From a virus (Duplodnaviria > Heunggongvirae > Uroviricota > Caudoviricetes), in the IMG/VR virus record IMGVR_UViG_2703718832_000006: a stretch of DNA of 36,592 nt, one strand, 5' to 3'. The notes beneath the pieces were generated by a model. It was not told where the DNA came from. It saw nothing but the letters and a program-made list of their open reading frames with translations, and did not search any database. Positions 2,856 through 36,592 of this stretch are shown here, piece after piece. The position numbers were made by a program, and so were the translations under genes. Every line of letters begins with the position of its first letter. Position 1 is the first letter of the stretch.

Positions 2856-3074
2856 TCAAAGAGAGAGCGCCACCTGTCCTGATTTCATTGGATGCGGCTG
2901 AACCGGATTTGACTCTTTTGGCGTTGCAATCGAACGAACAAAAGTTTCATGGGTAACAAAAGTATGGCTGCAGTTAATGTTCTGGCACTGGTTGTAACGC
3001 TCTTTGGTCAATGAAGATACCTGAAAACTGCTACGAGTATGGGCGGCACTTCCACACAGTGGGCAAATCATCAT
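2856..3074 (-). CDS. ogr: late gene transcription activator, Ogr/Delta zinc-finger family
   Basis: CPLCG...C..NC zinc-finger pattern (MMICPLCGSAAHTRSS...KERYNQCQNINCSHTF) typical of P2 Ogr / 186 B; start placed at internal Met 12 of the track ORF 2856..3107, giving about 72 aa. Confidence 0.85.
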   Translation of the reverse strand: MMICPLCGSAAHTRSSFQVSSLTKERYNQCQNINCSHTFVTHETFVRSIATPKESNPVQPHPMKSGQVALSL

Positions 3075-3164
3075 TTTTCGAGTTCTCCCCATTTTTGCTA
3101 AATTCACAATAATGATACCGCATTATTCCATTTTGCAAACTTAAAAGTTCTCCATTGCGAAGAA

Positions 3165-4265
3165 TCATTCCATTTCGAAATCATCAATCCTCACTTCAAG
3201 CTCCAGACTGGTTGTAAAACCGTTATCGGGGCTGACGGTATGCGTCAGAGTCGTAATGGTCCATTCCGCATCATCTATCGGCTGTTTAAAGCCACTGACC
3301 TTCACAGGCATTTCTGTGTAGAGATCTGCCCGCCCTTCCGCCAGTTGTAGCGAGAATGATGCAACGCCGCGTTGCAGGCGTTCCCACTGCATTTTCGCTG
3401 CCCGTTCGGCGTTGCTCCGGTTGGCATAAGTGCGATTAAGTACCAGCACGTTTTCATCCGTACCCACCAGGTAATCGCCCTGCTTCGCTTCCGGCTCTTT
3501 CTTCTGCTTCTTAGTCCTGCGCTTACGCTTCACCGTGGTGCTTTCTTTCTTCGCGGGTTCGCGGGTATGCAACCAACTGGCAATTACGCCCGTGTAGGCT
3601 CCGCGATCTGCCAGGGTAAAGCGGTGACTGTCGCCGTCCTTACGTGTGATTGAGATCACCGGCAGTGGTTTACCGCTGGCGCTTTTGCCCTGTCCCTGCC
3701 GGATGAATAACAGATTGCCATTTTTCACCGACGCGATGGCACCGTACTGGCGCGCCAGCCGCATCAGAAAACTGCCGTCACTCTCATTAGTCTGGTCTAT
3801 ATGCTCCACGGGCTTATCCGACAGGTCTTTACCCAGTGCCATCTTCAGCTTATGACGCGCGGCTATTTCCTTCACCACTTCCCCGACAGTGGTCTTGTGC
3901 CACGATTTTTCACGGCGGGTATTCAGCGTTTCCCTAAAATCAGCACTTCGCGCCCGGATAGTCAGGCGATCCGGTGCGCCGGTGTGTTCAATCTCGTCCA
4001 CCGTGAATGCCCCTTTCGGGAAAAGCGGCTGCCCCTTCCAGCCCAGCGCCAGCGTGATGACCGCACCACGGCGCGGCAGCACGATTTTTCCGTCGGCGTC
4101 GTCCAGCTCCAGATCAAGCTGGTCTGCTTCAAAGCCCCGATTGTCCGTCAACGTCAGACTCATCAGGCGGTTATCCAGCACAGTGGTGATATCCTTCCCC
4201 TCAATACTGATGCTGAATGCGGGAGTTTTGTTGCCTTTGTTAAGCAGTTCAGAGCTGAAATTCAC
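3165..4265 (-). CDS. tail protein D (late control gene D protein)
   Basis: 366-aa ORF immediately upstream of ogr and downstream of U, the position of P2 gpD. Confidence 0.85.
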   Translation of the reverse strand: MNFSSELLNKGNKTPAFSISIEGKDITTVLDNRLMSLTLTDNRGFEADQLDLELDDADGKIVLPRRGAVITLALGWKGQPLFPKGAFTVDEIEHTGAPDRLTIRARSADFRETLNTRREKSWHKTTVGEVVKEIAARHKLKMALGKDLSDKPVEHIDQTNESDGSFLMRLARQYGAIASVKNGNLLFIRQGQGKSASGKPLPVISITRKDGDSHRFTLADRGAYTGVIASWLHTREPAKKESTTVKRKRRTKKQKKEPEAKQGDYLVGTDENVLVLNRTYANRSNAERAAKMQWERLQRGVASFSLQLAEGRADLYTEMPVKVSGFKQPIDDAEWTITTLTHTVSPDNGFTTSLELEVRIDDFEME

Positions 4266-4747
4266 GACAGCAGCCCTCCCACCGTTTTACTGATATCGCT
4301 TAAGGCAGACGTTGCCGTATCCTGCAAATTATTCAGCTGCGTACTGAGATCACCGAACATATCGGACAGGGATTCATCCACCCGTTTGAGCGACAGGGTA
4401 AACTCAATCCGGCGCGGCATACCATCGCGGAAAAACTCCGTTTTAGTCTGATTCAGTCCCTCAATCACATACATGCCATAAATCGTGCCGCTGCCTTCAA
4501 TCAGGGGCCATGCTTTCCCCTGTTCTGCCATCTGCTCCAGTGCCAGCAACGACATCCTGCCACCTGTTATCTCCGGCATAAGAACACCGGAAAGCGTCAG
4601 CATGTCGTTGTCCGGTCCCAGAAACTGCGTGGACGGACGTCGGTTTACCCGGCTGTTTGCCGCATGTCGCCAGCTGCGTTGATACTGCAGCTCCTGATAC
4701 GGCACGGTGCGCAGCATAAACACGTACAATCCCAGCACCATCATCAT
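4262..4747 (-). CDS. tail protein U
   Basis: 161-aa ORF between tape measure and D, overlapping both by 4 nt (translational coupling), as for P2 gpU. Confidence 0.8.
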   Translation of the reverse strand: MMMVLGLYVFMLRTVPYQELQYQRSWRHAANSRVNRRPSTQFLGPDNDMLTLSGVLMPEITGGRMSLLALEQMAEQGKAWPLIEGSGTIYGMYVIEGLNQTKTEFFRDGMPRRIEFTLSLKRVDESLSDMFGDLSTQLNNLQDTATSALSDISKTVGGLLS

Positions 4748-8829: not shown

Positions 8830-10002
8830 TTACGCGCTGACCTGGCTGGCGAAATTCACCAGGTACTGATCGGTGATGCGCTGACGCAGCATCAGGTTTT
8901 CAAGTGGCGGCACTGGCGTGTAGTCGTAGTCGATGGTGAGTTTTCCGGCTTTCAGCGTGTCTTTGTCGTTCACCGACTCATCCAGCCAGCAATCACCACC
9001 AATGAGATAGCCCTGACTGACCAGTCTGCGCATTTTGGCGCGGATACCTTCGATAATGTCGCGGGCCAGCGACGGGTTAAGCGGTTTATCCACCGCCCAC
9101 ATGTGTGCTTCTGCCATCGTGTCCGTCAGCACCTGCGCCGTGCGGGTGTAGTTTTCGAAGGCAAAGAGCGGGTCATCACTCAGGCAGCGGGACCCCCAGA
9201 AGCGGAAACCGTCTTTACGCACAAGCGTGGTGACGTCGTTCTGGTTCAGCAGACCTGCATCGGTTGCCGGGTCCTGCAGATCCCAGAACACATCTGCAGA
9301 AATTCCGGTGACACCGTTCACGCCCACATTGGACAGGCTTTTGTGCCATCCGGTCTGCTCGTCAATTTTGGCGCGCAGACCAAGCGCACGGGCGGTGGCA
9401 TATGCCGTTGCTTCGGCATTCAGCACCGTGTCCCAGCCAGTAAAGTCAGGCCAGATCAGCATCCCTTCGCGCTGGCTGAAGTTTTCGCGGTAAGTGATCG
9501 CCTCCTGCACTGTCTTGCAGCCATACGCTGACAGGTAAGCAAATCCACGCAGGCTTTGCGCCACGCTCAGCAACTCAGTAGCTACCGCCTTGGTGTCGTG
9601 GCCTGGCACGCCGAGAATGCGCGGTTTAACGCCGAGCTGTGACTGGGCAGATAACAGGGCTTTCATACCTGTTTTTTTACCTTCAGCAGTCACTGCGCCG
9701 ATGATATTGGTCGTGGTTTCGTCTTCCGTTTCACCCTGCGGCACACGCACAACAATGGTCACGGGTTTTGCCTGGTCAGCGATGGCATCCAGCGAACGGG
9801 CCAGAGTACCGGACTCACCCGCTTTACCGCTGGCAGTCAGCACATCAGTGATCAGCACGGGTTTATTAAGAGGAAACATTTTTGCATCGGCATCATCGCC
9901 CGTGCAGACCATACCCACGATGGCGGTGCTCACCGTGGTAATAGATCGGGTGCCTTCGTTGACTTCAACAACGCGCACCCCGTGGTGGTAATCCTGAGCC
10001 AT
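8830..10002 (-). CDS. tail sheath protein FI
   Basis: 390-aa ORF with AGGAGG-like RBS, upstream of FII, P2 gpFI position and size. Confidence 0.9.
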
Positions 10003-10144: not shown

Positions 10145-10717
10145 TCAGGGGGATTCATTACTCTTATTTGCCGGAAATTTTCTATAAATTGTGGAAACAC
10201 CCACATCAAAAATCAGTGCAATACGCTGTCTTGATTCTCCGGCCTCGAGTAAGCGTCCAATCTGTGCCCACTGTTCGGTGGTCAACTTAGGACGGCGTCC
10301 ACCTACTCTGCCTTTATCACGAGCTGCAGCCAGCCCCGCCCTGGTACGTTCAACTATCAGTTCGCGTTCCATTTCAGCTAGGGCACCCATGACATGAAAA
10401 AAGAAACGGCCCATTGGGGTACTGGTATCAATACTGTCAGTCAGGCTTCTGAAATTCACACCACGCTGGCGCAACTCTTCTATCAGCGTAACAAGATGCC
10501 GCATACTGCGCCCCAACCTGTCCAGCTTCCAGACAACCAGCGTGTCTCCTGCCGATAGTGTCCTGAGTAGTTTTTTCAGCCCCGGTCTGTCGGACTTAGT
10601 GCCACTGATTTTGTCCTCAAAAATCCGCTCACATCCCGCGCAGTTCAGTGCATTACGTTGCAAATCGGTGTTCTGGTCATTTGTTGACACGCGTACATAG
10701 CCAATAAGCATGATCAT
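10145..10717 (-). CDS. site-specific DNA invertase, Hin/Gin/Cin/Pin serine recombinase family
   Basis: 190-aa ORF starting MIMLIGYVRVSTNDQNTDLQ (catalytic-serine region of small serine invertases) with a C-terminal HTH; inverted crossover sites flank the adjacent tail-fibre segment. Confidence 0.9.
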   Translation of the reverse strand: MIMLIGYVRVSTNDQNTDLQRNALNCAGCERIFEDKISGTKSDRPGLKKLLRTLSAGDTLVVWKLDRLGRSMRHLVTLIEELRQRGVNFRSLTDSIDTSTPMGRFFFHVMGALAEMERELIVERTRAGLAAARDKGRVGGRRPKLTTEQWAQIGRLLEAGESRQRIALIFDVGVSTIYRKFPANKSNESP

Positions 10718-10738: not shown

Positions 10739-11137
10739 ATGATGCCAGTTAGCTGTTACCTCTGCATTTTCTTAAACGTTGGTTTGGGAGAAGCGGCGAA
10801 AAGGGATGTGGGCACAGGAGATAATCAGATACCGGATATGGGAGCATTCGCTTCTGGTTCGGGATGGTTCAGGCTACCAGGTGGATATATTGTTCAGTTT
10901 GGCACTTTTTCAGGAAACACGACCCGCTTTATCAGTGGACACTTCCCTATACCATTCCCTAATCAGCCGATGGTTTCAGTCAGTGTTATGTCTGATGCCG
11001 TTCAGTCAGACCCGTCGATTCCTGCCCCGCAGGTTTTGTCTGTAAATTTTGAACGTATCAGTAATTCAGCGTGGCGTGTGGCAACCAGTGATATCTCACA
11101 GCAATACAGATTCAGTTATATTTCGATAGGACGGTAG
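10739..11137 (+). CDS. alternate tail-fibre C-terminal coding segment (silent in this orientation)
   Basis: Frame open across the crossover site, where it encodes ...GLGE... exactly as H does at its own site; an inversion would fuse it in frame to the constant part of H. Confidence 0.6.
   Translation: MMPVSCYLCIFLNVGLGEAAKRDVGTGDNQIPDMGAFASGSGWFRLPGGYIVQFGTFSGNTTRFISGHFPIPFPNQPMVSVSVMSDAVQSDPSIPAPQVLSVNFERISNSAWRVATSDISQQYRFSYISIGR
10767..10792. repeat. inversion crossover site (hix/gix-like 12-2-12 site), invertase-proximal copy
   Basis: ttttcttaaacg tt ggtttgggagaa; the right half-site is identical to the half-site in H at 12646-12657 in inverted orientation. Confidence 0.6.
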
Positions 11138-11139
11138 AA

Positions 11140-11580
11140 ATGCAGAAATATATTTTCAGTGCCGATAAAAATGCGTTTTTCCCTGTGGAGCTTAAAATCG
11201 CTTATCAGGAATCCGGCGAATGGCCCGATGATGGAATCGAAATTGACGACACTGTTGCTGCCGAATTTATGAAGGAAGCACCAGAAGGAAAATACAGAGG
11301 TGTCATCGACGGAATGCCTGCATGGATTGATATTCCACCGCCAACTCATGAGGAACAAATTGCCGCAGCCGAACTGAAAAAGCAGCAATTGATTAATCAG
11401 GTCAACGAATACATAAACAGTAAGCAATGGCCTGGTAAAGCGGCGATTGGTCGCCTGAAAGGTGAGGAACTGGTGCAATATAATTTGTGGCTGGATTATC
11501 TGGACGCACTGGAACTGGTCGATACTTCCGGTGCGCCAGATATTGAATGGCCTACGCCTCCGGCAGTTCAGGCCAGATGA
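11140..11580 (+). CDS. tail fibre assembly chaperone (alternate, partner of the silent fibre segment)
   Basis: 146-aa ORF directly after the alternate fibre segment; its C-terminus (DTSGAPDIEWP) parallels that of the G-like protein on the opposite strand (DTSTAPDVIWP). Confidence 0.65.
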   Translation: MQKYIFSADKNAFFPVELKIAYQESGEWPDDGIEIDDTVAAEFMKEAPEGKYRGVIDGMPAWIDIPPPTHEEQIAAAELKKQQLINQVNEYINSKQWPGKAAIGRLKGEELVQYNLWLDYLDALELVDTSGAPDIEWPTPPAVQAR

Positions 11581-12154
11581 CATCAGGCGCGGTGCTGGTA
11601 TCTGTTGCCGTCACCGCGTCAATATAATCCAGCACAGCGTTAAGTCGGGTTGTTTCTGCCTGCGTCAGCTTCCGTCCGGCCTGTAATTTCAGTTGAATCA
11701 GACTGATGGAAGACATTGCTGCATCAATCAGTGACTGGCGCTGTGCTTCTGCCGCTTCTACTGCGGCGCTATGCTGTGCCTCAGTATCCGTCACCCATTT
11801 CTCACCATCCCATTTATCATATGGCGTTAACGGGGCGATAGTGGTTGTATTTTCAGGGTAATCACCCAGAGATGTGATTTCTTTCGATTCTCCTGTTTCG
11901 GTGCTATAGATGATTTCACCGCGATGGTCTGGCACATATTCCCATGAGTTAAAATCTGCAGAGCGGCAGATTGCATAACCGGCTTTATGTGTACCTGGTG
12001 CATCTAAGCATGAATACGCCGGAATACCGACACCCACAGCAAGGTATTCGGTTGATGTGGAAAGATATTCCTTCGTCTCAGCATCAAAATTATAAACGGT
12101 AATGTTTCCTGCCTTTGTAGTAATGAGTTCGCTATTTAATACGGCTTTATTCAT
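11552..12154 (-). CDS. tail fibre assembly protein G
   Basis: 200-aa ORF whose start overlaps the H stop by 1 nt; P2 gpG position. Confidence 0.8.
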   Translation of the reverse strand: MNKAVLNSELITTKAGNITVYNFDAETKEYLSTSTEYLAVGVGIPAYSCLDAPGTHKAGYAICRSADFNSWEYVPDHRGEIIYSTETGESKEITSLGDYPENTTTIAPLTPYDKWDGEKWVTDTEAQHSAAVEAAEAQRQSLIDAAMSSISLIQLKLQAGRKLTQAETTRLNAVLDYIDAVTATDTSTAPDVIWPELPEA

Positions 12155-22149: not shown

Positions 22150-23916
22150 ATGAACACCACACTGACACCCGCAGATCTCGATCCCCGTCGGCAGGCCATG
22201 CTGCTGTACTTTCAGGGATACCGCGTAGCCCGCATTGCTGAAATGCTGGGCGAGAAAGTTGCAACCGTTCACAGCTGGAAAAAACGCGACAAGTGGGGTG
22301 ACTATGGGCCGCTGGATCAGATGCAGCTCACCACCGCCGCACGCTACTGCCAGCTCATTATGAAGGAGCACAAAGAAGGGAAAGATTTCAAAGAGATTGA
22401 CCTGCTGGCGCGCCAGTCTGAGCGCCACGCGCGGATCGGCAAGTTTAACAATGGCGGCAACGAAGCCGACTTAAACCCTAACGTCACCAACCGCAATAAA
22501 GGCCCACGCCGTCAGCCGGAAAAGAATGTTTTCACCGATGAGCAGATTGAGAAGCTGGAAGAAATCTTCCATTCCTCCATGTTCAACTACCAGCGCCACT
22601 GGTGGGAAGCCGGAAAAACCAACCGCATCCGCAACCTGCTGAAGTCACGCCAGATCGGCGCGACCTTCTATTTTGCCCGTGAAGCCCTGATTGACGCCCT
22701 GCTTACCGGACGTAACCAGATTTTCCTTTCTGCCAGTAAGGCTCAGGCCCACGTCTTTAAACAATACATCATCGACTTCGCCAAAGAAGTCGAGGTGGAG
22801 CTAAAAGGCGATCCGATGGTGCTTCCTAACGGAGCCACGCTTTACTTCCTCGGCACCAATGCCCGCACGGCCCAGAGTTATCACGGCAACCTGTATCTGG
22901 ATGAATATTTCTGGATACCGAAATTCCAGGAGCTGCGCAAAGTGGCTTCCGGGATGGCTATTCACAAAAAATGGCGACAAACCTATTTTTCCACGCCATC
23001 CAGCCTGACCCACAGTGCTTATCCGTTCTGGTCCGGTGCGCTGTTCAACCGTGGACGCAACAAAGCTGACAAGGTGGACATCGACCTGTCCCACAGCAAT
23101 TTGGCCCCCGGCCTGCTGTGCGCAGACGGGCAATACCGCCAGATAGTCACCGTGGAAGATGCGGTGCGCGGCGGCTGTAACCTGTTCGACCTCGACCAGC
23201 TACGCATGGAGTACAGCCCGGACGAATACCAGAACCTGCTGATGTGCGAGTTCGTGGACGATCTCGCGTCCGTGTTCCCGCTCAGCGAACTGCAGGCGTG
23301 CATGGTGGACAGCTGGGAAGTCTGGACCGACTTTCATGCACTGGCCCTGCGCCCGTTTGGCTGGCGCGAAGTGTGGATCGGTTATGACCCGGCAAAAGGT
23401 ACGCAGAACGGCGACAGTGCCGGATGCGTGGTGGTGGCTCCGCCAGCCGTGCCGGGTGGTAAGTTCCGCATTCTTGAGCGTCACCAGTGGCGCGGGATGG
23501 ACTTCCGCGCCCAGGCTGACGCCATCAAAAAACTCACCGAACAGTACAACGTGACCTATATCGGTATCGACTCAACCGGCGTTGGTCACGGGGTTTATGA
23601 GAACGTGAAAGCGTTCTTTCCTGCCGTCCGGGAGTTTGTCTACAACCCCAATGTTAAAAACGCCCTGGTACTCAAGGCCTACGACATTATCAGCCACCGC
23701 CGTCTGGAGTTTGACGCCGGGCACACCGACATTGCGCTGTCATTCATGGCAATCCGTCGCGCCACCACCGCCAGCGGCAACCGCCCGACCTATGAAGCCA
23801 GCCGCAGCGAAGAAGCCAGCCACGCCGATCTGGCCTGGGCAACGATGCACGCACTGTTTAACGAACCGCTGCAGGGTGAATCCGCCAATACCAGCAATAT
23901 TGTGGAGATTTTTTGA
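22150..23916 (+). CDS. terminase large (ATPase) subunit P
   Basis: 588-aa ORF divergent from O; P2 gpP position and size. Confidence 0.9.
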   Translation: MNTTLTPADLDPRRQAMLLYFQGYRVARIAEMLGEKVATVHSWKKRDKWGDYGPLDQMQLTTAARYCQLIMKEHKEGKDFKEIDLLARQSERHARIGKFNNGGNEADLNPNVTNRNKGPRRQPEKNVFTDEQIEKLEEIFHSSMFNYQRHWWEAGKTNRIRNLLKSRQIGATFYFAREALIDALLTGRNQIFLSASKAQAHVFKQYIIDFAKEVEVELKGDPMVLPNGATLYFLGTNARTAQSYHGNLYLDEYFWIPKFQELRKVASGMAIHKKWRQTYFSTPSSLTHSAYPFWSGALFNRGRNKADKVDIDLSHSNLAPGLLCADGQYRQIVTVEDAVRGGCNLFDLDQLRMEYSPDEYQNLLMCEFVDDLASVFPLSELQACMVDSWEVWTDFHALALRPFGWREVWIGYDPAKGTQNGDSAGCVVVAPPAVPGGKFRILERHQWRGMDFRAQADAIKKLTEQYNVTYIGIDSTGVGHGVYENVKAFFPAVREFVYNPNVKNALVLKAYDIISHRRLEFDAGHTDIALSFMAIRRATTASGNRPTYEASRSEEASHADLAWATMHALFNEPLQGESANTSNIVEIF

Positions 23917-24959
23917 TGGGAAAGAGTAAGAAAAACCGCGCTGCGGCGACGAATCAGCTCAAGCATAAAAGCCAGACTTCAGCCGAAGCATTCAGCTTTG
24001 GCGATCCCGTTCCTGTTCTGGACCGCCGTGAACTGCTGGACTATGTGGAATGCGTACAGATGGACCGCTGGTATGAGCCGCCCGTCAGCTTTGACGGACT
24101 GGCACGAACCTTCCGCGCTGCCGTGCATCACAGCTCACCGATTGCAGTAAAATGCAACATTCTGACCAGTACCTACATCCCTCACCCGCTGCTCAGCCAG
24201 CAGGCTTTTTCACGTTTTGTGCAGGACTATCTGGTATTTGGTAACGCCTACCTGGAGAAACGCACGAACCGCTTCGGTGAAGTTATCGCCCTTGAGCCTG
24301 CTCTGGCAAAATATACCCGACGCGGGTTAGACCTGGATACCTACTGGTTTGTGCAATACGGTATGACAACCCAGCCGTATCAGTTCACGAAAGGCAGCAT
24401 TTTTCATCTGATGGAACCGGACATCAACCAGGAGATCTACGGCCTGCCAGGTTATCTTTCTGCCATTCCGTCAGCCCTGCTCAACGAGTCCGCCACGCTG
24501 TTCCGCCGGAAGTATTACATTAACGGCAGTCATGCAGGCTTCATCATGTACATGACCGATGCCGCGCAGAACCAGGAAGATGTGAACAACCTCCGCAATG
24601 CGATGAAAAGCGCCAAAGGTCCGGGCAACTTCCGCAACCTGTTTATGTACTCGCCTAACGGCAAAAAGGACGGGCTTCAGATTATCCCATTGTCAGAAGT
24701 TGCGGCGAAGGATGAGTTTCTGAATATCAAGAACGTGAGCCGTGATGACATGATGGCTGCGCACCGCGTGCCGCCGCAAATGATGGGGATTATGCCTAAT
24801 AATGTTGGAGGGTTTGGGGATGTGGAAAAAGCCGCGAAGGTTTTTGTCAGAAATGAGTTGGTTCCTTTGCAGAAAAGACTAGTTGAGCTAAACACCTGGA
24901 TAAATCAAAATATTGTGTCATTTAATGACTACATCCTTGACCAAGATAAGGGCATTTAA
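23913..24959 (+). CDS. portal (capsid vertex) protein Q
   Basis: 348-aa ORF overlapping the P stop by 4 nt; P2 gpQ position and size. Confidence 0.9.
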   Translation: MMGKSKKNRAAATNQLKHKSQTSAEAFSFGDPVPVLDRRELLDYVECVQMDRWYEPPVSFDGLARTFRAAVHHSSPIAVKCNILTSTYIPHPLLSQQAFSRFVQDYLVFGNAYLEKRTNRFGEVIALEPALAKYTRRGLDLDTYWFVQYGMTTQPYQFTKGSIFHLMEPDINQEIYGLPGYLSAIPSALLNESATLFRRKYYINGSHAGFIMYMTDAAQNQEDVNNLRNAMKSAKGPGNFRNLFMYSPNGKKDGLQIIPLSEVAAKDEFLNIKNVSRDDMMAAHRVPPQMMGIMPNNVGGFGDVEKAAKVFVRNELVPLQKRLVELNTWINQNIVSFNDYILDQDKGI

Positions 24960-25747
24960 TGCCCTTTTTTATCCTCATAAGCAACGTCATCGTATAATTT
25001 TAAGGCACCTAAATCATGTAATTGCTGCTTGAATTCCTTACTTAAACTAAACCCCTGAAGGAGAGAATATTTTTCAATAAATTTCTTGGCAGGCTTTCCT
25101 ACCGATGAAAAACCATTTAATAGCATCGCGCCAGATTCTATAGAAGATATTTGTGCTCTAACTAATTTCGCATACTTGGTTTTTTCTTTCTCAGTCAAAT
25201 AGTTAGAGTCATTGATATGTTTAAAAATATGGTAAATATTCCTGAAATAATGTCCCACATTCGCAAAATTGTCACCTTCCAGATAAACCATATTAACTGA
25301 AAGCTCTAACCTTTCATCCAAAGGAAGTGAATCATCCACAATATTAAGTAGGTTAAACTTCACTTCGGTAATGTATAATGAAAGAGCCTCCCGTCCTACA
25401 TACACTTTTCCATCTGAATACGTTGTTTTAATTTCTGATAAGTTATCTTTATGAAATCTTAGTAACTCAAATAACACAGACTCGAATGACTGAATAGATG
25501 ACTGCCTAGATGTAGAATATAGTGTGAAACAAACAAGCATGATAGAGATAAAGGCCAGAGCAGGATTCAGTACACCACCAATATAATCGCCAAACTGTCC
25601 CCATTTCTCTACGGAATCACTCCATGAATACATTCCAAATTTACAAACATAGCTAACAAACACTATCAGCATTAAAATAAAAGCCAAAAACAACAGTGAA
25701 TAAATAATGGCATAACGCTTAATATTTCGAAGAATGGCACCACACAT
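24956..25747 (-). CDS. membrane protein with two N-terminal transmembrane helices and a roughly 190-aa soluble C-terminal domain (cargo, function unknown)
   Basis: The track ORF 24956..25813 begins with a non-ATG codon and overlaps the upstream gene; the first ATG (Met 23, at 25747) has an AAGG about 10 nt upstream; two hydrophobic helices (AIIYSLLFLAFILMLIVFV and ALAFISIMLVCFTLY); AT-rich codon usage. Confidence 0.55.
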   Translation of the reverse strand: MCGAILRNIKRYAIIYSLLFLAFILMLIVFVSYVCKFGMYSWSDSVEKWGQFGDYIGGVLNPALAFISIMLVCFTLYSTSRQSSIQSFESVLFELLRFHKDNLSEIKTTYSDGKVYVGREALSLYITEVKFNLLNIVDDSLPLDERLELSVNMVYLEGDNFANVGHYFRNIYHIFKHINDSNYLTEKEKTKYAKLVRAQISSIESGAMLLNGFSSVGKPAKKFIEKYSLLQGFSLSKEFKQQLHDLGALKLYDDVAYEDKKGH

Positions 25748-25758
25748 CTCACAATACC

Positions 25759-26136
25759 TTATATATAATCCATATTTAAATCTATTGTATAAATACCTTT
25801 CCTCGCCACACAAGGAATAGATTTCTTTAAAATTCTAACATTTTTAATTTCCCACACATAATAACCTGGAGACCAAGGCTTATTAAGAGTTGTTTCTTGG
25901 TTTTGTTTTAAGTAATCCTCATATGACCAATTTCTAACTGAAACAAAATCGACAATAGCCATAGCCACCCCATGATCTATATCGCTTTGATTTTTAAGAT
26001 ATTTATCATTCTGAACAAGAATGACGTTTTTTAATGGTATCGTTTCAGGATACCACGACCGTATTTCGATAGATTTAGAACCATTTATAATATTTTCTAC
26101 CGCTGGAGTCAAAATCGATATAGCTTGAAACTTCAT
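25759..26136 (-). CDS. ASCH-domain protein (PUA-like fold)
   Basis: 125-aa ORF with the N-terminal GxKxxExR signature of ASCH domains (GSKSIEIR). Confidence 0.6.
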   Translation of the reverse strand: MKFQAISILTPAVENIINGSKSIEIRSWYPETIPLKNVILVQNDKYLKNQSDIDHGVAMAIVDFVSVRNWSYEDYLKQNQETTLNKPWSPGYYVWEIKNVRILKKSIPCVARKGIYTIDLNMDYI

Positions 26137-26201
26137 GCTCTATCCTCTACTATGCTAAGGCTATAACATTCTAACATAAATAAATAAACGGAGGTAATAC
26201 T

Positions 26202-26747
26202 ATGTTAATTTTCATAGCAGGTGTTCATGGTGTAGGCAAAGGTTACTTGTGTTCATTTGCAAAAGATGATTTCGGGGTAACTCATGTAAGCGCAAGCGAA
26301 CTTATAAAAAATAATTCTAATATTAAATTTGATAACAGTAAGTTAACGGCCACACCTGATAAAAACCAATCAATATTACTTACGGCACTTAATGCATTAA
26401 AGTTAAAGGTATCCAATATTTTATTGGATGGTCATTTTACCTTAATAAATAAAAATGGAGATATTGAAGTTCTCAAGCAAGAAGTATTTGAGGAAATGGG
26501 GCTAGATGGAGTAATTTTAGTTGAGGAGTCTCCCGATACAATTAGAGAACGAATAATGAAACGAGATGGGAGTGATATTACTTATGATTTAAATAAGCTG
26601 ATGGAAGCTGAAAGAGAAAACGCAAAATATGTTACAAATAAAATCAATGTACCATTAATTATCTTAGAATCCCCAACAACAAACGATTTATCTATTGCCC
26701 TAGAAAAACTGGGCATGGTTAAGAAACATGCCCAGACAACATTATAA
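26202..26747 (+). CDS. small P-loop NTPase, kinase-like
   Basis: 181-aa ORF with a Walker A-like loop at the N-terminus (IFIAGVHGVGKGYL) and a hydrophobic-strand aspartate (ILLDGHF); GGAGG RBS before the ATG. Confidence 0.65.
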   Translation: MLIFIAGVHGVGKGYLCSFAKDDFGVTHVSASELIKNNSNIKFDNSKLTATPDKNQSILLTALNALKLKVSNILLDGHFTLINKNGDIEVLKQEVFEEMGLDGVILVEESPDTIRERIMKRDGSDITYDLNKLMEAERENAKYVTNKINVPLIILESPTTNDLSIALEKLGMVKKHAQTTL

Positions 26748-27134
26748 ATAACGATAAGACTGTGGGGCGACGCCGCCGGGAATCAACTCATTTAAGTCGA
26801 CAGGGAATTTATATCTTTTAGGGCTTTTGATGGAAATAGCAAAAGCCTTTTCTCTTTGGTGGAAATAATCTTTAAAAAAAGAATGTGTAATTCCTGCATG
26901 AGCTTTCGTTTTATCCCACAATTCTGAAGGGGATAGAGCAAGAATATCTCCTACTTTAAATTCACCTATTACTTTGCCAACCGGCATCGTTGCGTAAATA
27001 ACTATCGTATCAACATTTTTATTTCTAAAAATATTTTTCCGAAACTCATATTTTTTTTTACCAGAAAGTATACTCTCTGCATACTCTGGCTTAATCGATA
27101 ATAAAACTTTCATCAACACCTCCCTGTAAGACAA
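26742..27134 (-). CDS. ASCH-domain protein (PUA-like fold)
   Basis: 130-aa ORF with the ASCH GxKxxExR signature (SGKKKYEFR); the start may be Met 8 (27113); its stop overlaps the convergent kinase stop by 6 nt. Confidence 0.6.
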   Translation of the reverse strand: MSYREVLMKVLLSIKPEYAESILSGKKKYEFRKNIFRNKNVDTIVIYATMPVGKVIGEFKVGDILALSPSELWDKTKAHAGITHSFFKDYFHQREKAFAISIKSPKRYKFPVDLNELIPGGVAPQSYRYL

Positions 27135-27672
27135 TCTGCTTAAATGCTGAATCAGTTAGTGGTAAAAAACCCCAATAATCACTATTGGTATAACCTGTAA
27201 TATTCATGATTTCATCACGAATAACTCTTTTTTCCAAAGGGAAATTATAAGTAAACCGTATAATTATCGGATAATTTTTTTTCATATATAGAAGCTGTAA
27301 CTCATCTTCATCAAAAACGCTATAAGGTTCACAGTAATTCTTAAATTCCTCATAAGTTAAGAAATCGTGAATATCTTTAATTTCCTGAACCACACACACT
27401 GAAGTTGCAACAGATCTAAACCGAGCTGGACCTTGTCCATCTGAAGTACGATAAATAAGCAAATTATCTCCAGGCTTTAGGCTGGCTACCCCATGCATTT
27501 TTGTTAAGTATACTTTTTCAATACTGTTGGTATGTGATATATCAGCGATGATACCAGCACTCTCATTGTGGAGTTTTGACTCAGGGAAAAGACGTGTATG
27601 CCATGCAGGATAAATACTTAATAAATAATTTCTCCCCTGCAATTTGACTAAGGGATAATTAGCATAGCTCAT
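27091..27672 (-). CDS. hypothetical protein (193 aa), middle gene of the GNAT-ASCH operon
   Basis: ORF packed between the GNAT and ASCH genes with a 3-nt gap upstream and an overlap downstream; no motif I can assign with confidence. Confidence 0.5.
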   Translation of the reverse strand: MSYANYPLVKLQGRNYLLSIYPAWHTRLFPESKLHNESAGIIADISHTNSIEKVYLTKMHGVASLKPGDNLLIYRTSDGQGPARFRSVATSVCVVQEIKDIHDFLTYEEFKNYCEPYSVFDEDELQLLYMKKNYPIIIRFTYNFPLEKRVIRDEIMNITGYTNSDYWGFLPLTDSAFKQIVLQGGVDESFIID

Positions 27673-27675
27673 TTT

Positions 27676-28146
27676 TTACTCCTTCCATACCAAGTTTTTA
27701 AAGTATACACCTTCTTGCCCATTAATCGTAGAAAGATTTTTCCTCGCCTTTAAAACAAAACCATATTTAGTTAATAAGCGAATTAATCCTGAATGCTTAT
27801 CAAATATAGTAACATATACTTCTTTTAGTTTGTTTCTCATAGCAAATTGAAACATAATTCTAATAAAACGCTCTCCAAGTTTGGTTCCATGAGCATCGAT
27901 TTTAAATGTGCCAAGCTTTACTCGCTTCATCTTTGGAAACGTTGGAGTCATATCACTCAACTCTTCATCTTCTATTTTCAAATAGAGAAAACCATCGATT
28001 TCACCTAATTCATTACGTGATACAAACGCCTTATTTTTACCTTTTGAGAGAAACCAAACATCAAATCCTTCATAATCAGCTCTTAGGCTGTTAAAAAACG
28101 GATCTTTTAAATCGATATCACTAAAAAATTTTTCCTCGATAGACAT
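27676..28146 (-). CDS. GNAT-family N-acetyltransferase-like protein
   Basis: 156-aa ORF with a GNAT-like core pattern (HGTKLGERFIRIMFQFA ... LIRLLTKYGF); fold assignment is by eye only. Confidence 0.5.
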   Translation of the reverse strand: MSIEEKFFSDIDLKDPFFNSLRADYEGFDVWFLSKGKNKAFVSRNELGEIDGFLYLKIEDEELSDMTPTFPKMKRVKLGTFKIDAHGTKLGERFIRIMFQFAMRNKLKEVYVTIFDKHSGLIRLLTKYGFVLKARKNLSTINGQEGVYFKNLVWKE

Positions 28147-28320
28147 CCAGTTCCTCTTCTAATGGCAGCGAGCAAGTGACCTTATCCTTACATGTTAATA
28201 GATAACCACAGCTGTAGGCAATTACATACATTAAGCTCTATCAAACAACGAGCAAACTTAAGCACCGCTACAACTCAACCTAGCTGATGCCTGTTTTGAC
28301 GATTACCCTATCAGCGCGCG

Positions 28321-28339
28321 CTCGTATCCCCGCCACGCC
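28321..28339 (-). other. cos-like cohesive-end site
   Basis: Minus-strand GGCGTGGCGGGG..., matching from memory the first 12 nt of the 19-nt cohesive ends of P2 and 186. Confidence 0.4.
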
Positions 28340-28380
28340 TGCCCGCTTTATGTAGTGGTTTTCATGCACCTGCATGATCT

Positions 28381-28408
28381 ACGCAAAAGCCCGCCAGTTC
28401 TGGCGGGC
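28381..28408 (-). terminator. putative rho-independent terminator after the DinI-like gene
   Basis: Stem gcccgccag / ctggcgggc with a 3-nt loop, followed on the minus strand by TTTTGCG. Confidence 0.45.
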
Positions 28409-28543
28409 CTTAGCAAAAACGATCCTCAAACGATCATGCGATCTCATGCGGCATAGACATGCACTACAGAGCTAACGCCTCGCAAGGGCTCGTTGTTCAA
28501 CCTTGCTGACGCCAGAAGCAAGTTCAGACGCCAGCAACGTTTC

Positions 28544-29129: not shown

Positions 29130-31544
29130 TTAATACAGGTTCCGCCACTTATCATCTTCCTGCAAACGCTGGTTCCGATAGAAGATACGCAGGCCTGCTC
29201 CTGACGGAATGCTGCCGCCGCGAAGGAGTAAATCGACTTCTTTCTCGCTGCCATCAAATCCTCTGGACTTCAGTTCATAGACGAGCTGCTGTCGTTGATG
29301 GTCTGTAATTCGCTGTTTGTAGTCTCTACGCCGTTTCGGTTTCACCAGGCGTAACCTTACAGCCAGTTCCCGGCGCTCTTTTTTGTTCATACTGTGCAGG
29401 TAATCGTGCAACTCCTTGTCATCCATACGGGTGATATCCGTTCTGGTATCCCCATCAGCTGATTTGTCTTTCCCTTGTTGGTACAAATTTTCAGCAAGGG
29501 GACAGTTATTGCCACGAGTCCAAGGGGCGCAAGCGCCCTGGTCGGCTGCCGCCTCCTGAACGTCAACGGCCTTACGAACCATTTTCCACTTCACTGCATG
29601 AGTGCAAATCTTGCCCTGTACAATGGGTGACCAGATGCCATAAATACGAATACCGTGATCGCCATAAGCAGTCGGCTCTTCGTTAATTTCATAAGCTGTT
29701 CTGATAAGGTGATATTTGCGGGGAACCAGTACGCCGCCCTGCTTCATGATGTAGGTGGCAAAACAACCAGCATCAGCAGCAGCCAGGATGGCATCAAGGC
29801 GCGGGTTATCCAGTACCGGCGCACCTGCTTTTTTGTCCCCCTGTTGCCTTGCCGCCTGACCAGCCAGCAATCGCAGTTCACGGTAAGCCTGACGCCCCGG
29901 AATGCCAAAGAAGCGGAATTGCTGAACACGATGCAGAGACGCCCAGGCATTAACGTATTCAGCATTATCACGCAGGGATTTACCCGTTTCCTTGCTGATC
30001 TCGCCAGCCAGACCACGCCCGTCAATGTTCTTACTGATGTATTTCGCGATGTAGCTTGTCGGTGTTCCTTTGCGTGGGTTTATCAGCTCAGATTTAAAGC
30101 GTGGACCAGTGTTATTACCCAGTTCCTCGCGGTCTTCACGGATGGCAAACTTACGCAACAATGCAGTAATGGCGCGGCGGTCTTTTTTGCGCATGAAACA
30201 CATGAGATGCCAGTGCACAGTACCGTCATGGTGCGGCTCAGCCACCCGCACGCCATACCAGCGCAACCCGGCTTTGTGCATAGCCTTACGAAATGCAGCA
30301 AACATGCCGACCAGATAATCGCTGCTTTGTCTTACCGTCGCATTTGTCCAGGTCGGGTTGGGTCTGCCGTTGTTGAGCGTGGAATGGAAACGTGACGGAC
30401 AGGTGATAGTGTAGAAAACGGCGCAGTCACCACGCATTTCTGCGATAAGCTCCAGACCTTTAACACAGGCCATCATCTCATTGCGGCGATGTGCCGGGTT
30501 GCTGCTGCTGGCGTTTACCACATCTTCCATATCCAGCGTGTCGCCGTCTTCGTTCACCAGTTCATGAGAACGGAAAAACTCCAGCGACTTACGGCGCTGC
30601 TCACGTTTATGCGTCACGGCTTCATAGCTGACATAGGGAGATGCTTTTTTGCTGACCAGGCAGACAGCACGCAACTGCTCTTCCCGCCATTCGCAACGCA
30701 TCTTCCACAATTTTCGATACCACCAGTCGGCGCAAAGCATACGTGCCAGCGAACCCGGTATGAGTTCATAGGGCACGGGTTTGCGGCGGTTTCTTTTCCG
30801 GCGGAGTTGCTCAAACGCAGGCGGGATAACATCCAGTCGCAGGGTTTCCGCTGCCACCTTTTCCCATGTCTTGCGGATTTCTTCTGGCTTAACGTCATCG
30901 GTGGCATATAAATCGCCACAAGCGGCATCAAGGCACATGCTCATATGCGCAGCTACCAGGGTGGACAGGCGTTTTACCTGATCCTGACTCATTTCAGGCA
31001 GGATCAGCAGGCCCTCAAGCCCTTGATGGCTTGCCATAAAACGGAAAGAAGCGGATAGCTGACTGTCGCGTACACAATCCAGTCGCTCCAGACATGGCTT
31101 AATCGTCTCACGCAAATAGCGGGAATAAGCCTTTGGCCTGCCCAGGCTGCTGAAGTATTCGATACGTTGCATCAGCGGCTTGCTGATGTGGGTAGGCTGG
31201 GCGCTGACATCTGCCAGAATGACCATGTCCGGGTTAAAAAGCTGCTGCTCATGCGCAAGCTTTGCGCGGCTAATGAGCTTATCCTGCTCCATTTCGCGCT
31301 GGACAGGATCACGGGATTCATTAAAGAAATAACGCTCCCAGACCTGCTCACTCAGTGCCTCGCGGCGCAGTTGTTCCTGCTCGTTATCGGCAGCATACAG
31401 AGTGATCAGGTTTGAAAGTGCAGACTCCGGCGCAAATTCCGCCGGGTCCAGATAAGGGTTAATGGCCTTTTTCGGGCCGTTCCATGAAAATGATGCAGCG
31501 GCCTCGTTAAAGCCGCTAGAGTTGCTCATATCGTCATGACTCAT
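29130..31544 (-). CDS. replication initiation protein A (rolling-circle nicking protein)
   Basis: 804-aa ORF in the position of P2/186 gene A; contains a tyrosine pair (YIAKYI) resembling the rolling-circle initiator active site. Confidence 0.88.
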
Positions 31545-34568: not shown

Positions 34569-35144
34569 GTGACCATGAATTTGGAGAAAGGCGGACGAGG
34601 CGCTATAGAGCGCATGGTAGAAGCTTATGGATTCAAAACTCGACAGGCGTTGTGCGATCATTTAGGAATCTCTAAAAGTACACTCGCCACACGCTACATG
34701 CGTGACTCATTCCCAGCAGAATGGGTAATCCAGTGCGCCCTTGAAACGGGCACCTCGCTTAATTGGCTCACAACCGGACATGGTTCAAAGCAAACTTCAG
34801 GTAATACAAATACTATGGAAGTTGCTAAATATGTATTATCTGATGGTGCCTTGCGTGAAGACGGTTTTTATATTTTTGATAAGGGATTTCTACCCTCTAC
34901 GTTTAAAAAACCTTTTGTCATCACAGATAACAATTCTGAATTTATTTGTGATAAAGAATTTGATGATATACGTGATGGTAAATGGGTAATAAGTATTGAT
35001 GGCGAAGTAACGATCCGTGACATTACTCGTTTACCCGGTGGAAGAATCTTCGTCGAGGGTGGAAACAGAGCCTTCGAATGTAAGATAGAAGACATTGAAA
35101 TAATTGGTAAAATTATAAGTTTAACAGTCAAGTATGTTAAATAG
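34569..35144 (+). CDS. immunity repressor CI (186-type, about 190 aa)
   Basis: 191-aa ORF with an N-terminal HTH (RQALCDHLGISKSTLATRYMRD) and a C-terminal domain; divergent from apl and upstream of int. Confidence 0.8.
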   Translation: MTMNLEKGGRGAIERMVEAYGFKTRQALCDHLGISKSTLATRYMRDSFPAEWVIQCALETGTSLNWLTTGHGSKQTSGNTNTMEVAKYVLSDGALREDGFYIFDKGFLPSTFKKPFVITDNNSEFICDKEFDDIRDGKWVISIDGEVTIRDITRLPGGRIFVEGGNRAFECKIEDIEIIGKIISLTVKYVK

Positions 35145-35351: not shown

Positions 35352-35539
35352 CTTTTGCTTTTATATCTGCGTCTAAAATAAAAATGAGCCGCAGGTTAAC
35401 CGCAAAAGTTACATGCTCACATAGCAAAAAGAATAGCCAACTTCATTATGGCTTCAGTGAGATGTATGGTCGTAGGATTTCATACATTGACACTGGTTAT
35501 ACATACAGTAAAAATGCTCTCTACTGGAGGGCATTTTTT

Positions 35540-36592
35540 ATGGCAGTACGAAAACTCACCACAGGGAAATGGCTTTGCGAATGTTACCCCGCCGGACGAA
35601 GTGGGCGTCGTGTGCGTAAACAATTCGCCACCAAAGGCGAAGCTCTGGCTTTTGAGCGTCACACTATGGAAGAAACCGAATCAAAGCCATGGCTGGGCGA
35701 ATCAGTGGATCGTCGAACCCTGAAAGACGTGGTTGAGCTATGGTTCAAACTACATGGTAAATCTCTGACTGCTGGGCAGCATGTCTATGACAAATTGCTG
35801 CTGATGGTTGACGCTCTGGGCAATCCTCTTGCAACCGATCTCACCTCTAAAATGTTTGCCCACTATCGAGATAAACGCCTGACAGGCGAGATCTACTTCA
35901 GCGAGAAATGGAAGAAAGGAGCAAGCCCGGTCACCATTAACCTGGAGCAAAGCTATCTAAGTAGTGTTTTTAGCGAACTATCCCGTCTGGGCGAATGGTC
36001 GTATCCGAACCCACTGGAGAACATGCGAAAATTCACCATCGCAGAAAAAGAGATGGCATGGCTTACCCATGAGCAGATTGTTGAATTACTGGCTGATTGC
36101 AAACGTCAGGACCCAATTCTAGCACTGGTAGTTAAGATATGCTTAAGCACAGGCGCACGCTGGCGAGAAGCCGTAAATCTTACTCGTTCACAGGTGACCA
36201 AATACCGAATTACCTTTGTAAGAACGAAGGGGAAGAAAAACAGAAGTATCCCTATCAGTAAAGAGCTTTACGAAGAGATCATGGCGCTTGATGGGTTCAA
36301 TTTCTTCACAGACTGCTATTTTCAATTTTTATCCGTGATGGAAAAAACGTCTATCGTGCTCCCTCGCGGTCAACTCACACACGTTCTGCGCCATACGTTT
36401 GCGGCGCACTTCATGATGTCGGGTGGAAACATTCTGGCCTTACAAAAAATTCTCGGACACCACGATATAAAAATGACTATGCGTTACGCACATCTGGCAC
36501 CGGATCATCTGGAAACGGCGCTCCGTTTCAATCCTCTGGCAACGCTGCCAAGTGGCGACAAAGTGGCGGCAGCGGTTGGCATTACCCCGTAA
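35540..36592 (+). CDS. int: tyrosine integrase
   Basis: Start placed at Met 53 of the track ORF (GGAGGG about 10 nt upstream), about 350 aa; C-terminal catalytic signature R...HxxR...Y (LRHTFAAHF ... MRYAHL). Confidence 0.9.
   Translation: MAVRKLTTGKWLCECYPAGRSGRRVRKQFATKGEALAFERHTMEETESKPWLGESVDRRTLKDVVELWFKLHGKSLTAGQHVYDKLLLMVDALGNPLATDLTSKMFAHYRDKRLTGEIYFSEKWKKGASPVTINLEQSYLSSVFSELSRLGEWSYPNPLENMRKFTIAEKEMAWLTHEQIVELLADCKRQDPILALVVKICLSTGARWREAVNLTRSQVTKYRITFVRTKGKKNRSIPISKELYEEIMALDGFNFFTDCYFQFLSVMEKTSIVLPRGQLTHVLRHTFAAHFMMSGGNILALQKILGHHDIKMTMRYAHLAPDHLETALRFNPLATLPSGDKVAAAVGITP

Follow-up and report, generated by a model that had tools for sequence, protein, structure and literature searches.

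The virus record IMGVR_UViG_2703718832_000006 of IMG/VR (Caudoviricetes) is a 36,592-nt stretch of DNA, hereafter the window, in which positions are counted from the first letter. The whole window is a P2-like (Peduoviridae) prophage, whose backbone genes include terminase P (22150-23916), replication endonuclease A (29130-31544), a DinI-like gene and a Dam methylase gene. Between the portal gene Q and a cos-like block, it carries an AT-rich island of six open reading frames (ORFs) that make up three transcription units on alternating strands: the two halves of a split GNAT-EVE protein, an ASCH partner, a P-loop kinase-like protein, a second ASCH-like protein and a putAbiC membrane protein. 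The reading that we favour, with about even confidence, is that this island is a horizontally mobile, six-ORF cargo cassette in a cos-proximal hotspot, consisting of a GNAT-EVE/ASCH core and co-evolving accessories. We are highly confident of the identity of the individual parts, which are as follows (strand is given where the feature has one).

23913-24959, plus strand: portal gene Q, the left island boundary (RefSeq annotation of the identical region and ORF list)
24948-24966: terminator-like hairpin with a stem of 8 bp and then a run of T (consensus scan), common to the convergent ends of Q and the putAbiC gene
24956-25747, minus strand: putAbiC membrane protein, 263 aa from the RefSeq start (Pfam PF16872, 1.2e-18, 67.9 bits against a cut-off of 22)
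25759-26136, minus strand: second ASCH-like protein, 125 aa (RefSeq 'ASCH domain-containing'; phrog_3193, 2e-33; Pfam ASCH, 0.0017)
26202-26747, plus strand: P-loop protein resembling nucleoside monophosphate (NMP) kinases, 181 aa (Pfam AAA_17, 3e-18; ADK, 4e-5)
26742-27113, minus strand (longer ORF to 27134): ASCH partner, 123 aa (PADLOC PDC-M11B, 2e-49; Pfam ASCH, 6e-9), GevA-like
27091-27672, minus strand: EVE/ASCH-like PUA-fold reader half of the split GNAT-EVE, 193 aa (PADLOC PDC-M11A, 6e-69, profile positions 166-357 of 357)
27670-27686, minus strand: split junction, with GGAAGGAG at 27686-27679, TAA at 27678-27676, an AAA codon and ATG at 27672-27670
27676-28146, minus strand: GNAT half of the split GNAT-EVE, 156 aa (PADLOC PDC-M11A, 1e-58, profile positions 11-160 of 357), GevT-like
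28147-28313: island-specific non-coding leader 5′ of the GNAT ORF, presumed promoter region
28314-28465: cos-like block bounding the island, a putative cos, with GGCGTGGCGGGGA at 28327-28339 on the minus strand

The island stands apart from its surroundings in composition. Its G+C content is 0.337 across 24960-28313, against 0.527 in the remaining window, and the next-lowest value among sliding windows of 3.35 kb (mean 0.537, standard deviation 0.034) is 0.442. Each of the six ORFs falls between 0.31 and 0.34, so the island is uniform in composition. The first-pass annotation of this DNA, made by a model from the letters and an ORF list, had described an AT-rich island of six genes between Q and the cos-like site, spanning 24956-28146. 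The low G+C content bears out this description, and the six ORFs lie where it had put them, with the same six annotated by RefSeq in eight Escherichia coli genomes. The coordinates given for the island are also right as far as they go, but its right edge lies about 170 bp further on, at 28313, where the match to other Peduoviridae backbones restarts (28313/28314). The added interval, the leader, is without similarity to those backbones and is conserved with a copy of the island in Klebsiella.

The two halves at the right end of the island form, together with the ASCH partner, its core. The 156-aa and 193-aa ORFs correspond to the N- and C-terminal parts of one family that is usually fused: almost all of more than 2200 homologues, counted as protein clusters and drawn from many phyla, are single proteins of about 350 aa, and the split point in the window lies in the variable interdomain linker of these fused forms. 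The first-pass annotation had listed a GNAT-like acetyltransferase beside a 193-aa protein of no assigned kind. The former has a GNAT fold, as supposed, but the latter is the other half of the same GNAT-EVE family and has a PUA-like (ASCH/EVE) fold, seen by structure prediction; a sequence search of the PDB with the 193-aa domain returned nothing. The 156-aa protein resembles canonical GNATs too little for Pfam to report a match.

The junction between the halves is conserved. In the window, the halves share a frame and are separated by one stop codon. The same succession of a GGAG-rich stretch, a stop codon (TAA or TGA) and a start codon recurs at the junctions of loci L002, L003, L004, L005, L007, L090, L101 and L102, and the pattern, with an ATG or GTG start, is kept in at least 11 diverged lineages. 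The halves of L091 and L100 are in different frames (a 2-nt spacer; an ATGA overlap), which rules out stop-codon readthrough as a requirement. On sequence grounds, the junction suggests translational coupling of the two halves. Relative to the Klebsiella copy, the ratio of nonsynonymous to synonymous substitutions (dN/dS) is 0.066 for the GNAT half and 0.024 for the EVE half, and PHROGs holds a separate family for the 193-aa split form (phrog_30943). The split has been maintained in this lineage of enterobacterial phages. The high predicted template modelling score of the fused model suggests that the GNAT and EVE products could reassemble. A single origin of the split was considered and rejected, as a neighbour-joining tree places four fused forms (P0001, P0003, P0004 and P0006) within the split group; the gene seems to switch between the fused and split states in both directions, and where the halves are in frame a single base change suffices. 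Elsewhere, a TAG codon near position 1645 of L018, a Granulicella metagenome-assembled genome, falls within the GNAT-EVE linker with no start codon after it; this codon, in contrast to the enterobacterial split, probably reflects either a true nonsense mutation or a faulty assembly.

Next to this split protein, the ASCH partner ORF overlaps the end of the EVE-half ORF. Its GxKxxExR motif reads GKKKYEFR (G18, K20, E23 and R25 in the 123-aa numbering) and is at least 90% conserved across 80 homologues, with dN/dS of 0.054 for the protein. The second ASCH-like gene, which diverges from the kinase gene and precedes the putAbiC gene by 11 nt, encodes the variant GSKSIEIR, in which K, E and R are retained in 8/8 cassette copies; this protein matches the PDC-M11B profile weakly (hhalign), has a dN/dS of 0.25 and was seen, among the loci examined, solely inside the six-ORF cassette. 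In a recent preprint, 19/19 ASCH proteins assayed deacetylated N4-acetylcytidine (ac4C) in tRNA, and the Lys and Glu of GxKxxExR were essential (10.64898/2026.02.27.708502). Two ASCH proteins had been called in the first pass: both carry the motif, but the 193-aa protein brings the number of PUA-like domains in the island to three. The accompanying idea, that the island might work by acetylation and deacetylation, fits a GNAT fold encoded beside two ASCH proteins with the catalytic motif, at the level of predicted domains.

The kinase gene is convergent with the gene for the ASCH partner, with a 6-nt overlap at the stop codons. Its family profile is closest in the PDB to the UMP/CMP kinase 1qf9 (5e-8), followed by adenylate kinases. 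Its best score against an NCBIfam equivalog, among those for adenylate, UMP-CMP and (d)CMP kinases, is 32 bits, with the cut-off at 155, and it is therefore a member of none of them. The residues G7, H9, G12 and K13 of the P-loop, D76-G77-H78 (LDGH) and R121 are invariant, and dN/dS is 0.17. A PADLOC match to VakA (E 0.007) was judged too weak to use.

For the putAbiC protein, the first-pass description of two membrane helices holds (two N-terminal hydrophobic helices, at about residues 11-35 and 55-78), but the protein is also a member of a Pfam family, and its start is more likely at 25747 than at 25813, to which the ORF can be extended. It matches the PADLOC AbiC model weakly (1.1e-5, 23 bits, residues 160-234 only), and AbiP likewise (3e-4); it belongs with phrog_8999 (6e-85) and has a dN/dS of 0.068. 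Close homologues lie inside the same cassette: both of those checked at 43-49% identity and three more at 57-61%. In Bacteroides sp. OM05-12 (L078, 9396-10757), directly downstream of GNAT-EVE and ASCH genes, a 454-aa ORF joins a putAbiC-like part (about residues 10-261) to an AAA_17 kinase (286-436). A membrane-effector function for putAbiC is suggested by its family name and by this linkage.

Several comparisons indicate that the six ORFs form one conserved cassette. In a neighbourhood sample of 80 GNAT-EVE loci, drawn from genomes of many phyla, GNAT-EVE and ASCH genes adjoin in 79/80. A kinase homologue adjoins the pair in about 16/80 loci across phyla, and in Psychromonas (L064) it stands between both core genes. 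Kinase and putAbiC are the only recurrent neighbour families of the core, besides the phage backbone genes of the few P2-borne loci and one small family found at 5 loci. The full six-ORF order and orientation is found in 12 contexts, of which 10 are P2-like and 1 is lambdoid: the window, an E. coli sister genome with DNA 99.9% identical to it (L001), and L002, L005, L007, L084, L087, L090, L091, L100, L101 and L102. The hosts comprise Escherichia, Kosakonia (L002), Providencia (L005), Erwinia (L007), Enterobacter (L084), Klebsiella (L087), Rahnella (L090), Cronobacter (L102) and, by source name, Serratia (L100) and Hafnia (L101). Identity within the cassette falls to 38-60%, with synonymous sites saturated, and all six ORFs have dN/dS of 0.02-0.25, indicating purifying selection. 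The identity ranks across loci agree for all six genes, which indicates co-divergence. Further, every Enterobacterales context examined of a close kinase or putAbiC homologue retains the whole six-ORF arrangement. In the literature searched, we found no description of the six-ORF set as a single conserved cassette; its split toxin, second ASCH-like gene and putAbiC gene are variant features.

The Klebsiella copy shows how the cassette has moved. Positions 4551-8206 of L087 (Klebsiella pneumoniae) correspond to 24753-28409 of the window and lie in a lambdoid prophage, flanked by the O/P replication genes on one side and a DinI/RusA/Q region on the other. This copy retains the last 200 bp or so of P2 gene Q together with the cos-like block; the cassette therefore came from a P2-like phage, and the whole hotspot segment was moved by recombination. 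Direct or inverted repeats flanking the island, which might mark an insertion, are short and at chance level, and no RNA elements or tandem repeats were found within it. Since the lambdoid copy retains the Q and cos flanks, exchange of cargo by recombination in these conserved flanks is more likely than repeat-marked insertion.

In E. coli, the interval between Q and cos is a slot for variable cargo, as had been proposed in the first pass. The island occurs in 8/5426 complete E. coli genomes, at 99.4-99.9% identity, whereas the flanking block occurs in 1277. Sister prophages have other genes of defence type in the slot, and six near-identical backbones carry different cargo there: a TIR gene; a Hypoth_Ymh gene; a PIN gene; an AIPR gene; a DprA gene with a phosphoribosyltransferase gene; and two hypothetical genes. 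The cos-proximal locus between gpA and gpQ is a known defence hotspot of P2-like phages (Rousset 2022, PMC9122126). The defence case for the island rests mainly on the positions of the cassette and its core in phage hotspots and on the link to putAbiC.

The cos-like block itself is present in the same 1277 E. coli genomes and is also conserved in L002, L005, L007 and L084. Its GGCGTGGCGGGGA motif matches the cos of phage 186 only in part. The P2 cos sequence, GGCGAGGCGGGGAAAGCAC, has no match in a search that allowed up to 3 mismatches. Given this partial 186-like motif and no P2 match, we call the site only cos-like. In the window, L002 and L007, the block lies on the gene A side, so that the cassette is between Q and cos; in L084 (Enterobacter, 4439-4577) and L005 (Providencia, 11388-11511) it lies on the portal side, so that the cassette is between cos and gene A. 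The same cargo is thus found on both sides of cos. In L084 (Enterobacter hormaechei), an extra gene of 454 aa without a Pfam match (2998-4362) separates the portal gene from the cos-like block, next to the cassette, and may be further hotspot cargo. A sister prophage, the P2-like prophage of E. coli KS-NP019 (L094), has a DUF3850 (ASCH-like) gene at 9092-9394, inserted between those for Dam methylase and TraR/DksA, which is a further case of a small PUA-like gene in the early region of P2.

The core has been predicted before, as a toxin–antitoxin or anti-phage module. Contrary to the first-pass statement that the gene combination matches no defence system that could be named, the 156-aa and 193-aa ORFs together match the M11A model of the PADLOC candidate PDC-M11 and the adjoining ASCH ORF matches M11B, with the E-values listed above; the one paper on PDC-M11 found in the literature search names the candidate only in a strain inventory. 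Bell, Wolf and Koonin (2020; PMC7641849) described EVE domains fused to GNAT, with ASCH and AAA_17, as common in prophages and predicted a toxin–antitoxin function; none of the GNAT-EVE modules had been characterised at that time. As credited there, Iyer (2013) proposed DNA-base acetylation. These modules resemble the island in having a GNAT followed by an EVE-like PUA fold, an ASCH gene that overlaps downstream, a frequent AAA_17 neighbour and a gammaproteobacterial prophage setting, and differ from it in that the island has GNAT and EVE as separate ORFs and no PIN domain. The island also adds the second ASCH-like gene and putAbiC, neither of which is mentioned in PMC7641849. The first-pass suggestion of a new kind of system is therefore not upheld, as the core was already predicted and the cassette is a candidate in variant form.

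Phage records point the same way. In GenBank PV340567.1 (Escherichia phage PhiR47_2, 2025), homologues are labelled 'GevT toxin' and 'GevA antitoxin', with 44% identity for GevT and 54% for GevA; the literature search found no paper behind these labels. In the lambdoid PhiR47_2, the two genes lie directly downstream of cI (L099, 3506-4934). The GNAT-EVE/ASCH pair is also found in Salmonella phage SopEPhi, in the Lactobacillus prophage Lj965 and in seven further Escherichia phage records (4A7 twice, D2, 1W, 3W, Lambda_4C10 and IdasGreatGrand), whose tblastn matches have equal percentage identity, E-value and score, so that these seven carry a very similar gene.

Further likenesses concern the proposed chemistry. 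DarT and DarG are a toxin that writes on nucleic-acid bases and an antitoxin that erases the mark, and the pair acts in anti-phage defence. As a working analogy, the island would likewise pair a base modifier with an adjoining, reversing enzyme as antitoxin, although its chemistry would be acetylation rather than ADP-ribosylation and there is no relation in sequence or fold. Like TacT, AtaT and KacT, which acetylate aminoacyl-tRNA (cited by Bell 2020), the island GNAT is about 150 aa long and adjoins a small partner gene. Unlike them, it works with a PUA-like reader, and its partner resembles an ASCH enzyme rather than a ribbon-helix-helix (RHH) or Xre antitoxin; no helix-turn-helix or RHH domain was found in the six proteins with Pfam and NCBIfam. 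Both island ASCH proteins carry GxKxxExR with its Lys and Glu, as do the N4-acetylcytidine amidohydrolases YqfB, TthASCH, EOLA1 and TRIP4, which, unlike the island proteins, are housekeeping or stand-alone enzymes. BapA, an ASCH-fold glucosyl hydrolase that partners Brig3, acts on DNA with glucosyl-5-hydroxymethylcytosine in a validated defence system (PMC13160076), which indicates that ASCH-type folds can process phage DNA.

With AbiC (PF16872) the island protein shares N-terminal transmembrane helices and a prophage location; it differs in that its putAbiC subfamily is tied to the GNAT-EVE cassette in every context examined and is fused to the kinase in Bacteroides. PUA-like domains are also shared with nucleases that depend on base modification (VcaM4I, PD-T4-3 and the N-terminal domain of McrB), in which such folds read modified bases; the effector domain of the island is instead a GNAT. 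Type IV modification-dependent restriction was nevertheless rejected, because no nuclease domain is joined to the PUA-like reader: searches of Pfam, NCBIfam, PADLOC and PHROGs found no nuclease family (HNH, PD-(D/E)xK, GIY-YIG or PLD) and no glycosylase in the six proteins.

How the island might act can be sketched from these parts. A role in prophage exclusion or abortive infection is the likeliest and seems to us moderately probable, functional integration of the accessories with the core evenly balanced, and writer and eraser enzymes acting on an acetyl group at cytosine a tentative proposal. In this scheme, the EVE-like pocket would pick out a nucleobase on RNA, DNA or a nucleotide, and the GNAT would acetylate a nearby exocyclic amine, most parsimoniously the N4 of cytosine. 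The ASCH partner, with its Lys/Glu amidohydrolase motif, would take the acetyl group off and so restrain the toxin, by analogy with DarT/DarG. Infection would upset the balance of toxin and ASCH protein, and translation or replication would halt; the kinase, the second ASCH-like protein and putAbiC would probably contribute a step at the nucleotide level and an effector at the membrane. Cytosine N4 is favoured because hydrolysis of N4-acylcytosine is the sole chemistry shown for ASCH proteins, because the motif is conserved in both island ASCH families and because the accessory kinase is closest to UMP/CMP kinases. Alternative targets are aminoacyl-tRNA, as for TacT and AtaT, or modified phage DNA, along the lines of the Iyer proposal as reported by Bell and colleagues.

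Not all observations favour a single cassette with a defensive role, and the following weigh against it. At the 68 non-P2 loci scanned outside phages, the two genes closest to the core pair are mostly housekeeping or mobile-element genes, with a handful of strong matches to defence models (GajB, KwaB, a type I methyltransferase and a few PDC candidates); embedding of the pair in defence islands is weak, and its spread is more like that of a toxin–antitoxin module. The literature search found no published experiment on GNAT-EVE/ASCH, PDC-M11 or GevT/GevA. No sigma-70-like site precedes the GNAT ORF and its operon in a consensus scan, although the promoter scan of the island gave fewer consensus sites than shuffled sequence and is hence uninformative. 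The Pfam ASCH score of the second ASCH-like protein is below the gathering cut-off. The core occurs without accessories in about 62/80 loci and in the P2-borne L004 and L097, and the kinase of Kosakonia oryzendophytica (L002, 9404-9970, minus strand) is a pseudogene, its reading frame broken by several stops and its P-loop destroyed; the core can therefore do without the accessories.

These last points bear most directly on the possibility, which we rate clearly below the favoured reading, that the island is a miniature defence island of two or three independent, co-travelling units: a GevTA-like pair, a stand-alone putAbiC (perhaps with the second ASCH-like gene) and an accessory kinase. Besides the core-only loci, L003 has the core with putAbiC only, there in fragments, and a Pseudomonas prophage has a distant putAbiC homologue on its own. 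The three transcription units on alternating strands would suit separate units, as would the Kosakonia locus, in which the other genes remain intact beside the decayed kinase. AbiC, moreover, is treated as a single-gene system. By contrast, independent units would hardly be expected to keep their order and orientation in 12/12 contexts and two phage types at saturated synonymous divergence, or to show the same identity ranking for all six genes. The close putAbiC and kinase homologues with examined context are all in the cassette, the kinase is tied to the core across phyla to the point of insertion within it in Psychromonas, and the putAbiC–kinase fusion adjoins the core in Bacteroides; all of these favour the single cassette.

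Three further explanations concern what the core does. An addiction module that stabilises the prophage or its cargo slot, with no anti-phage function, would account for the toxin and antitoxin labels in GenBank, for the tight, overlapping bicistron, for the prediction in PMC7641849 and for the scatter of the pair as a two-gene insertion among housekeeping genes of many phyla, which is typical of toxin–antitoxin modules. We hold it to be unlikely, given the link to a putAbiC protein and the repeated presence of the pair in slots that typically house exclusion genes of the lysogen, namely the P2 cos hotspot and the site just downstream of cI in lambdoid phages. In lambda, this site carries rexAB. 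Addiction and defence are, in addition, not mutually exclusive roles. Alternatively, as Bell and colleagues proposed for the form without PIN, the GNAT-EVE protein might benefit the phage, acetylating modified nucleic acid of host or phage, or aminoacyl-tRNA, to protect the phage from host restriction or to subdue the host. The pair is present in many deposited temperate phages and, by the reasoning of Bell 2020 (PMC7641849), GNAT-EVE proteins without PIN are mostly prophage-borne and the PIN form would be the host's answer. Such counter-defence is nonetheless highly improbable: the hotspots are known for exclusion systems expressed in lysogens, putAbiC is co-inherited, and many fused copies are chromosomal with no phage genes nearby. 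Finally, the in-frame stop could be an inactivating nonsense mutation in a decaying remnant, as might be supposed from the near-universal fusion of the homologues, the shared frame and single stop of the halves in the window and the apparent true nonsense mutation in Granulicella. The junction kept in at least 11 diverged lineages with differing stop codons, the out-of-frame halves of L091 and L100, the low dN/dS of both halves and the PHROGs family of the split form led us to reject this pseudogene reading, and we give it next to no credence.

Within the favoured reading, the strongest version, which we regard as rather doubtful, is that all six ORFs form one immune pathway with nucleobase acetylation as its currency. 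The split writer would mark cytosine, or a phage-modified cytosine, in nucleic acid or the nucleotide pool; the two ASCH amidohydrolases would erase or sense the mark; the CMP/UMP-kinase-like enzyme would process the nucleotide; and the putAbiC membrane protein would carry out abortive infection. If true, it would make the island the first anti-phage system shown to work by acetylation and would give an AbiC-type effector an upstream pathway. GNAT-EVE/ASCH pairs are widespread, are common cargo of temperate phages and have been predicted to be conflict systems since 2013, and the window offers a compact, 3.4-kb version that is naturally phage-borne in E. coli, in a hotspot for which cloning and plaque tests are routinely done. 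Its split toxin sets reader apart from writer, and its three co-evolving partners could reveal the substrate (kinase) and the effector (putAbiC). Should acetylation of nucleobases or nucleotides prove to be the mechanism, it would constitute a new immunity chemistry and a biological role for ASCH deacetylases; should the island prove inert, a PADLOC candidate could be retired.

Two other regions of the window depart from its mean G+C content. A gene for a Hin/Gin-type DNA invertase (10145-10717, minus strand) adjoins tail-fibre-like ORFs at 10739-12154, with G+C of 0.44-0.49, which suggests an invertible tail-fibre segment of the prophage. A CI-like repressor gene (34569-35144) and an integrase gene (35384-36592, running off the end of the window), with G+C of 0.37-0.40, presumably represent the lysogeny module and attachment end.

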